Source: Escherichia coli (GTDB taxonomy: Bacteria > Pseudomonadota > Gammaproteobacteria > Enterobacterales > Enterobacteriaceae). From it: a stretch of DNA of 64,000 bases. The stretch lies in NCBI RefSeq assembly GCF_046105845.1, contig NZ_CP151004.1. The stretch is one strand, 5' to 3'. How positions within the stretch are numbered: position 1 is the stretch's first letter; every line of letters begins with the position of its first letter. The notes beneath the pieces were generated by a model, which ran no database searches, had not been told where the DNA came from, and saw only the letters and a list, made by a program, of their open reading frames with translations. Both the position numbers and the translations under genes were made by a program. Below, one piece after another: positions 62,318 to 64,000 of this stretch.

Positions 62318-64000
62318 TTACATCACCAGACGGCGAATGTCAGACAGCGTGTTGTTAATGATGGTAATGAAACGGGCACCATCAGCACCGTCGATCACGC
62401 GGTGGTCGAAGGAGAGAGAAATCGGCAGCATCAGACGCGGCACGAACTCTTTACCATTCCACACCGGCTCCATCGCGGACTTGGAAACGCCGAGGATAGC
62501 CACTTCCGGCGCGTTCACAATCGGCGCGAAGTGGGTAGTACCCAGGCCGCCGATGCTGGAGATGGTGAAGCAACCGCCCTGCATTTCGCCCGCAGTCAGC
62601 TTACCGTCACGCGCTTTCTTAGAAATAGTCATCAGCTCGCGAGACAGCTCGATGATGCCTTTCTTGTTGACGTCTTTGAATACCGGAACAACCAGACCGT
62701 TCGGGGTATCCACCGCCACACCGATGTTGATGTATTTCTTCAGGGTCAGACGCTGACCGTCTTCCGACAGCGAACTGTTGAAGCGAGGCATCTGCTCAAG
62801 AGCTGCAGCAACCGCTTTCATGATGAAGACAACCGGGGTGATCTTCACATCCAGCTTACGTTTCGCCGCTTCTTCGTTCTGCTGTTTACGGAACGCTTCC
62901 AGCTCGGTGATATCGGTTTTGTCGAAGTGAGTAACATGCGGGATCATCACCCAGTTACGGCTCAGGTTCGCACCAGAAATTTTCTGGATACGGCCCAGTT
63001 CCACTTCTTCGATTTCACCAAACTTGCTGAAGTCCACCTTCGGCCACGGCAGCATACCTGGGATACCGCCGCCAGTCGCCGCCGGAGCCGCTTCTGCACG
63101 TTTGATAGCTTCTTTCACGTAAGCCTGAACGTCTTCGCGCAGGATACGACCTTTACGGCCAGTGCCCTTCACTTTCGCCAGGTTAACGCCAAATTCGCGT
63201 GCCAGACGGCGGATTAGCGGAGTCGCGTGAACGTAAGCGTCGTTTTCAGCAAATTCAGATTTGCCTTCCGCTTTCGCAGCCGGTGCTGCTGCTGGAGCTT
63301 CAGCTTTTGCTGCCGGAGCCGGCGCTGCCGCTTCCTGTTTCGCAGGAGCTGCCGCAGGCGCTGCGCCTTCAACTTCGAAGATCATAATCAGCGAGCCAGT
63401 TTTCACTTTATCGCCAACGTTGACTTTCAGTTCCTTCACGACGCCTGCAAACGGAGCCGGGACTTCCATAGAAGCTTTATCGCCTTCTACGGTGATCAGT
63501 GACTGTTCAGCGGCAACTTTGTCGCCCACTTTCACCATCACTTCGGTCACTTCAACTTCGTCACCGCCGATATCCGGAACGTTAACTTCTTTCACGCCAG
63601 CCGCTGGTGCAGGAGCCGCTGCCGGAGCCGCTTCCTGTTTAGCCGCCGGAGCTGCCGCGCCCGCTTCACCCGCGACTTCGAAGACCATAATCAGCGAGCC
63701 GGTAGACACTTTGTCACCCACGTTCACTTTGATCTCTTTCACGGTGCCTGCAAACGGAGCCGGAACTTCCATAGAAGCCTTGTCGCCTTCTACGGTGATC
63801 AGCGACTGTTCAGCTTCAACTTTATCGCCAACTTTCACCAGGATTTCGGTCACTTCGACTTCGTCGCTGCCGATATCCGGAACGTTAACGTCTTTTGCCG
63901 CCGCAGCCGCTGGTGCTGCTGCCGGAGCTGCTTCTTTCTTCTCTTCTGCCTGAGCAGGTGCAGCGTCAGCTGCACCGTCGGCGGAATCGAAAATCATAAT
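62318..64000 (-). CDS. aceF: Dihydrolipoyllysine-residue acetyltransferase (pyruvate dehydrogenase E2), 5' end beyond window
   Basis: ORF 62318-63997 continues past window end; lipoyl domains (...[16 protein letters not shown]...), Ala/Pro linkers, E3-binding and catalytic domain ending ...[29 protein letters not shown]. Confidence 0.95.

Follow-up and report, generated by a model that had tools for sequence, protein, structure and literature searches.

At the end of a 64,000-nt stretch of Escherichia coli DNA (hereafter the window) two segments of about 300 bp stand side by side and resemble each other at the nucleotide level, which raises the question of what they encode and why their DNA is so alike. 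In the original prediction they were regarded as near-identical parts of aceF, the gene of dihydrolipoyllysine-residue acetyltransferase (E2p). According to the present analysis the repeat is the module array of aceF, and its similarity is mostly determined by protein conservation and codon bias with an excess attributable to occasional homogenisation, a reading to which a probability of roughly 0.9 is assigned.

The aceF frame occupies 62318..64000 on the minus strand (stop codon at 62318-62320) and comprises the 3' 1683 nt of the gene, open to the window edge, with the first 210 nt falling outside, past the window end. When read from 64000 to 62318 this frame shows no frameshift and no internal stop, and its translation carries the lipoyl-domain match. 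In the Pfam search of the window product, PF00364 (Biotin_lipoyl) matched two stretches with 154.2 bits (gathering score 22.1), the best of them being residues 37-106 (profile positions 2-72 of 73), and was followed by PF02817 (E3_binding) at 257-292 and PF00198 (2-oxoacid_dh) at 329-559, which is the domain order of E2p. The lipoyl-lysine hairpin motif (V/T)EGDKA(S)M was found in both full lipoyl domains and the catalytic motif DHRxxDG close to the C-terminus. Among the structures, the E. coli E2p entry 7b9k matches the window protein, and the entries 1qjo (E 3e-41) and 2k7v align to its residues 136-214/223. The 560-residue product is identical to AceF annotated in E. coli T-HYM1, the closest complete genome, in which the aceF DNA differs at 6 of 1683 nt. 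Of 5,426 complete E. coli genomes, 5,424 gave a megablast match to the window aceF, in each case annotated as aceF and with a best identity of 99.6%, and thus Pfam, PDB and the genome collection agree on the predicted identity of the gene. Small in-frame length variants were also observed among the complete genomes, in which the matching region measures 1692 nt (+9) or 1671 nt (-12) and not 1683 nt. In the laboratory strain E. coli JCL301 (NZ_CP107281.1) the match to the aceF query is confined to its last 96 nt, beside ampE, which suggests that the pdh region was deleted by engineering.

The domains follow each other on the minus strand as listed here from the window edge inwards. Translation and comparison with full-length AceF place the last seven codons of lipoyl domain 1 (IMIFDSA) at 63980..64000, and linker 1 (29 aa, rich in Ala, Pro, Glu, and Lys, 63% GC) occupies 63893..63979. 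Lipoyl domain 2 (lip2; residues 107-180 of full-length AceF) lies at 63671..63892, is matched by PF00364, and carries the DKASM motif with the lipoyl-lysine K144 encoded at 63781..63779; it is separated by the Ala/Pro-rich linker 2 (63590..63670; 27 aa, 72% GC) from the innermost lipoyl domain 3 (lip3; residues 208-281) at 63368..63589, which is recognized by PF00364 and by the structures 1qjo and 2k7v and has its lipoyl-lysine K245 at 63478..63476. Further the Ala/Pro-rich linker 3 with a weak 33-nt periodicity of its own (63233..63367), the peripheral-subunit (E3) binding domain (63125..63232; PF02817, 60.7 bits; PDB 4qoy and 8oqj), and the catalytic acetyltransferase domain with the DHRVIDG active-site motif (62324..63016; PF00198, 270 bits; PDB 4n72) are found. 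The lipoyl-lysine, one per module, swings among the active sites of E1, E2, and E3. The repeated unit is a lipoyl domain (74 aa) plus an Ala/Pro linker (27-29 aa), as had been proposed and as Pfam and the translation confirm. The count of two segments holds for the full units within the window, but the array consists of three units and the window end falls within it; since the cut is inside the gene, only two full modules and the tail of the first are on show.

At the DNA level the self-comparison revealed a direct repeat of two tandem units, 63312-63611 and 63615-63914, with 79% ungapped identity over 300 nt and a period of 303 nt from start to start, and the alignment of both units by MAFFT gave the same pattern with a conserved core and poorly conserved ends. 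Codon alignment of the 222-nt cores of lip2 and lip3 gave an identity of 85.1% for the DNA and 86.5% for the protein, and the linkers diverge more than the cores (62 of 81 nt match in a gapped alignment). When the interval 63261-63953 was shuffled 200 times by mononucleotides, its best 300-nt self-match had a mean of 35% and never exceeded 39%, which places the observed 79% far above chance. Nucleotide-level similarity of the two segments is thus present as predicted; the description "near-identical", however, was overstated: about one base in five differs, and in register lip2 and lip3 of the window allele share at most 21 nt without a mismatch. Tandem Repeats Finder at a minimum score of 30 reported no 303-nt period, only 12- and 33-nt periodicities of the Ala/Pro linkers. 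As DNA the repeat serves no function; in practice it matters because it mimics a repeat element and yields a repetitive antisense open reading frame and off-register BLAST pieces. For a genome scan it amounts to a false alarm.

The interval 63261-63953, to which the duplication had been assigned with no strand stated, coincides with this antisense frame on the plus strand, whereas the coding strand is minus. The frame is uninterrupted over 230 codons, and a gene for a repetitive protein could be read from it; nevertheless it opens with TTG, matches no Pfam family, and lies wholly antisense to aceF, a conserved gene that carries its annotation in 5,424 genomes, without another feature at this place. 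On translation the frame gives a low-complexity sequence of Ala, Gly, Ser, and Thr, as expected from GC-rich Ala/Pro codons reversed, and shows the same pattern twice, in line with the suggestion that the repeat explains the patterns of alternate-frame ORFs. The frame was rejected as a gene, the probability of a genuine one being practically negligible. The off-register pieces had a further effect: 1,938 genomes were scored as 90-95% identical in aceF by megablast, while the true identity is about 98-99%. A view of aceF as an unusually divergent core gene was rejected, as the low scores result from the joining of an off-register second BLAST piece (2 pieces, 1,878-nt span), and such pieces are a trap for automated conservation scores.

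The lipoyl repeat of aceF is known since 1983, when the gene sequence was published by Stephens, Darlison, Lewis and Guest, as cited in PMC8421416 and PMC6270654, and the three tandem lipoyl domains of E. coli E2p are textbook knowledge (PMC8421416, PMC6270654), in agreement with the remark that the repeat is a known feature of E2 enzymes. Lipoylation of the E. coli E2p lysine in vivo has also been reported (PMC8421416). The window shares with AceF of E. coli K-12 (UniProt P06959; PDB 7b9k and 1qjo) the domain order, the linkers, and the neighbours lpd, yacH, and acnB; nothing of substance differs, apart from the cut inside the gene.

The similarity of lip2 and lip3 in DNA has to be considered against what the protein alone would impose. 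Between these domains dN is 0.088 and dS is 0.49 (dN/dS about 0.18), a pattern that points to purifying selection on the protein as the main cause. The first domain, taken from the closest genome, has 77.5% DNA identity to lip2 and 76.6% to lip3 with dS of about 0.86. The expectation was obtained by independent back-translation of each domain pair with the codon usage of aceE, aceF, and lpd in 2000 trials; for lip2/lip3 it was 77.1 ± 1.9% and never more than 83.3%, for lip1/lip2 73.9%, and for lip1/lip3 72.5%. Since 77% is expected where 85% is observed, the bulk of the DNA similarity requires no DNA-level process. A real excess of lip2/lip3 similarity beyond protein conservation and codon bias exists, and the same codon is used at 49 of the 64 shared residues vs 33.8 ± 3.7 expected, a figure that rests on these 64 codons and could be inflated by position-specific codon preferences.

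Could the similarity be wholly the product of protein selection and codon bias, acting on ancient modules that never exchanged, with natural two- and four-domain alleles being irrelevant rarities or errors? The 77% obtained by back-translation, the dN/dS value, and the position of lip1, which lies merely about 2 SD over expectation in comparison with lip2 or lip3, would fit such an explanation, but it is rather unlikely: the 85.1% identity of lip2 and lip3 is above all 2000 simulations, and the surplus of identical codons, the paralogue divergence that does not exceed the orthologue divergence, the loss of positional orthology in distant E2p proteins together with their high within-protein similarity, and the clean hybrid alleles of complete genomes (the last three described below) are all against it. 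Under the favoured reading, in which protein conservation is supplemented by occasional homogenisation, the excess may come from unequal homologous recombination or gene conversion between modules, for which the 21-nt longest shared run of lip2 and lip3 in the window allele is short in terms of RecA-dependent exchange. The same process would give rise to single-crossover alleles with two or four lipoyl domains.

Two-domain alleles were searched for among complete E. coli genomes with hybrid-specific probes of 195-200 nt; junction queries of 584-622 nt were left unused, because the internal repeats would join into full-coverage matches in normal genomes. At least six complete genomes carry a two-domain aceF. 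In four strains (C4, C2, VTB97379v, and Rb-50) a lip2/lip3 hybrid was matched at 98.5-100% identity, and their aceF is annotated with 1590 nt and 529 aa, which equals 1893 minus 303 nt; each deletion hybrid has one clean switch point. The loci of these strains differ pairwise by 35-50 SNPs per 3.75 kb, which implies either more than one origin of the 1590-nt allele or its transfer between lineages. The other hybrid type, lip1/lip2, was found in strain 01_3327 (NZ_CP074961.1), in which aceF (2492-4075 of the retrieved locus; 1584 nt, 527 aa) has a normal ATG and no internal stop, and strain 03_3013 gave the same match statistics with the probe. Beyond the six named genomes, four further ones fell in the 95-99% band of the lip2/lip3-hybrid probe. 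Despite its intact frame the gene of 01_3327 was labelled by PGAP as a partial pseudogene "missing N-terminus", which is best read as an annotation artefact of the module deletion and illustrates how such deletions can mislead annotation pipelines. The frequency of two-domain alleles is about 0.1-0.2% of complete E. coli genomes, where four-domain alleles amount to none. Since the finished chromosomes that carry them differ in laboratory, host, and background, the two-domain alleles are treated as real.

Four-domain alleles were recognized in the full-length AceF protein search, where E. coli-labelled proteins of about 731-735 residues rank above the ordinary 630-residue ones and Salmonella and Citrobacter proteins of 723-731 residues were also returned; all these long proteins (723-735 residues) contain four lipoyl-lysine motifs. 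Two classes are present in E. coli, lip1-[hybrid]-lip2-lip3 with linker 1 duplicated and lip1-lip2-[hybrid]-lip3 with linker 2 duplicated. The corresponding DNA comes from the isolate assemblies GCA_000354275.2, GCA_000358395.2, and GCA_019368795.1 and from unrelated metagenome contigs, always between aceE and lpd. At informative sites the extra unit shows one switch in either class, being lip3-like to nt 110 and lip2-like from nt 143 in one of them and lip2-like to nt 80 and lip1-like from nt 110 in the other. The parental units have an identical stretch of 32 nt in common in the lip1/lip2 pair and, in the window allele, one of 20-21 nt in the lip2/lip3 pair, and a single-switch extra unit is the product that would be expected from unequal crossing-over within the conserved stretch near the lipoyl-lysine. 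With the 195-200-nt probes the hybrids of both classes were absent from the 5,426 complete E. coli genomes (best matches 94.4% and 93.3%). In Salmonella the fourth lipoyl domain of the complete chromosome CP075029.1 is 100% identical in DNA to the third, and in a four-domain protein of Salmonella Pullorum (4.68-Mb contig) the copies are diverged. The aceF of Citrobacter sp. GCA_005281305.1 (1501-3696 of the retrieved locus) has the order (lip1/lip2 hybrid)-linker 2-(lip3/lip1 hybrid)-linker 1-lip2-linker 2-lip3, which would need either two successive unequal exchanges or a misassembly.

The possibility of assembly errors concerns the whole set of copy-number variants. If the shared stretch by the lipoyl-lysine codons made the assembly graph loop or collapse, the repeat itself could be stable in nature, and a small-k de Bruijn loop through the stretch of about 32 nt, walked twice or skipped, would give the same structures. 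The absence of four-domain E. coli alleles from complete genomes, their confinement to draft and metagenome contigs, the identity of the duplicated linkers in most of them, strain-specific substitutions included, and the resemblance of several metagenome "alleles" to cross-species chimeras are what such errors would produce; however, two-domain alleles are present in at least six finished chromosomes of different laboratories, hosts, countries, and SNP backgrounds, the same four-domain protein is recovered from isolate assemblies and unrelated metagenomes, the Pullorum copies have diverged, and every event is in frame with a single switch point. An artefactual origin of the variants is on these grounds quite unlikely, and the four-domain alleles of E. 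coli are considered probable but unproven as genuine ones. It is somewhat more likely than not that the lipoyl-domain number of AceF is polymorphic (two, three, or four) in E. coli and Salmonella due to recurrent unequal crossing-over in an identical stretch of 20-32 nt close to the lipoyl-lysine codons.

The modules may also be compared between species. The pS values of E. coli and Salmonella orthologues are 0.23 for lip1, 0.32 for lip2, 0.43 for lip3, and 0.35 for the catalytic domain, and within one genome lip2 and lip3 differ by 0.36 in E. coli and 0.29 in Salmonella; the paralogues are therefore not more diverged than the orthologues, a weak statement, since each domain has about 53 synonymous sites (standard error about 0.07). 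At the protein level the positional orthology between E. coli and Salmonella is partly kept (lip2-lip2 69/74, lip2-lip3 64/74).

For a wider comparison 1.84 billion representative proteins were scanned, which yielded 150 distant E2p proteins; with the E. coli reference added, one lipoyl domain was counted in 46, two in 95, three in 8, and four in 1. In the 95 two-domain proteins (out of 104 multi-domain E2p representatives) the within-protein identity of the domains was 58.8%, while the between-protein identity was 43.7% for the same position and 43.6% across positions, and thus positional orthology is absent among distant two-domain E2p proteins. In the four-domain representative (P0122) three domains are 93-99% mutually identical. 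The absence of positional orthology would be another consequence of the module recombination proposed above. The hybrid alleles together with the within-protein similarity support the view that modules were repeatedly lost, gained, or converted within lineages, and this evidence points to lipoyl domains that appear to evolve in concert via unequal recombination.

In this respect aceF resembles other tandem intragenic repeats with concerted evolution: the single switch point of the hybrid units lies inside the longest identical stretch, the products of gain and loss are reciprocal, and in E2p the similarity within a protein exceeds the same-position similarity between species. The variant alleles are rare, and aceF is accordingly not a fast-switching contingency locus. 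If the proposed polymorphism is true, the ongoing loss and regain of modules would keep the domains of each lineage alike, and the "three domains" of E. coli would represent a selected optimum on a fluctuating repeat and not a fixed architecture.

The natural two- and four-domain alleles are like the engineered aceF alleles of J. R. Guest's laboratory in that whole modules are removed or added in frame; the latter were made in vitro, whereas those described here come from natural isolates. The constructs of the same laboratory (1985-1997) reportedly included up to nine lipoyl domains. Fewer lipoyl domains lead to lower growth rate and yield according to Dave, Guest and Attwood 1995, as cited in PMC10579247. 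The number of E2 lipoyl domains is given as 1-3 "depending on the species", with within-species polymorphism unmentioned (PMC6270654). In the literature search, the coverage of which excluded the subscription papers of the 1980s-1990s, no report of natural within-species lipoyl-domain duplication or deletion in aceF was met, and a statement of E2p module loss, gain, or conversion within lineages was likewise not found; as the older literature is outside this coverage, no claim is made that module recombination is new. The existence of natural two- and four-domain alleles is a side result of modest interest for the research of 2-oxoacid dehydrogenase complexes, and the variant strains would provide natural material for the old question of the retention of three seemingly redundant lipoyl domains in E. 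coli.

In T-HYM1 the neighbourhood of the gene comprises acnB, yacH, lpdA, aceF, aceE, and pdhR. In the window an open reading frame at 60569..62026 (minus strand) lies downstream of aceF, where the matching E. coli locus has lpdA annotated, and aceE, which would be past the window end, was seen in related loci only. Two more length differences were noted here. The yacH (DUF3300) frame at 58549..60498 on the plus strand contains a 96-nt (32-aa) tandem repeat at 59938-60265 with 3.4 copies and 90% matches, and has 649 codons vs 617, 585, and 572 aa in other E. coli loci, so that the repeat number appears to vary between strains. The aceF-lpd spacer (61994-62317) has 324 nt in the window and 207 nt in T-HYM1, and the extra stretch of about 117 nt (approximately 62023-62169) holds the sequence CAGAATCCCCAGGAGCTTA (62109..62091, minus strand). 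This sequence is 2 mismatches away from the core of ERIC/IRU, an enterobacterial intergenic repeat (number of matches expected by chance, 0), and the same presence/absence difference of the insert is observed among other loci.
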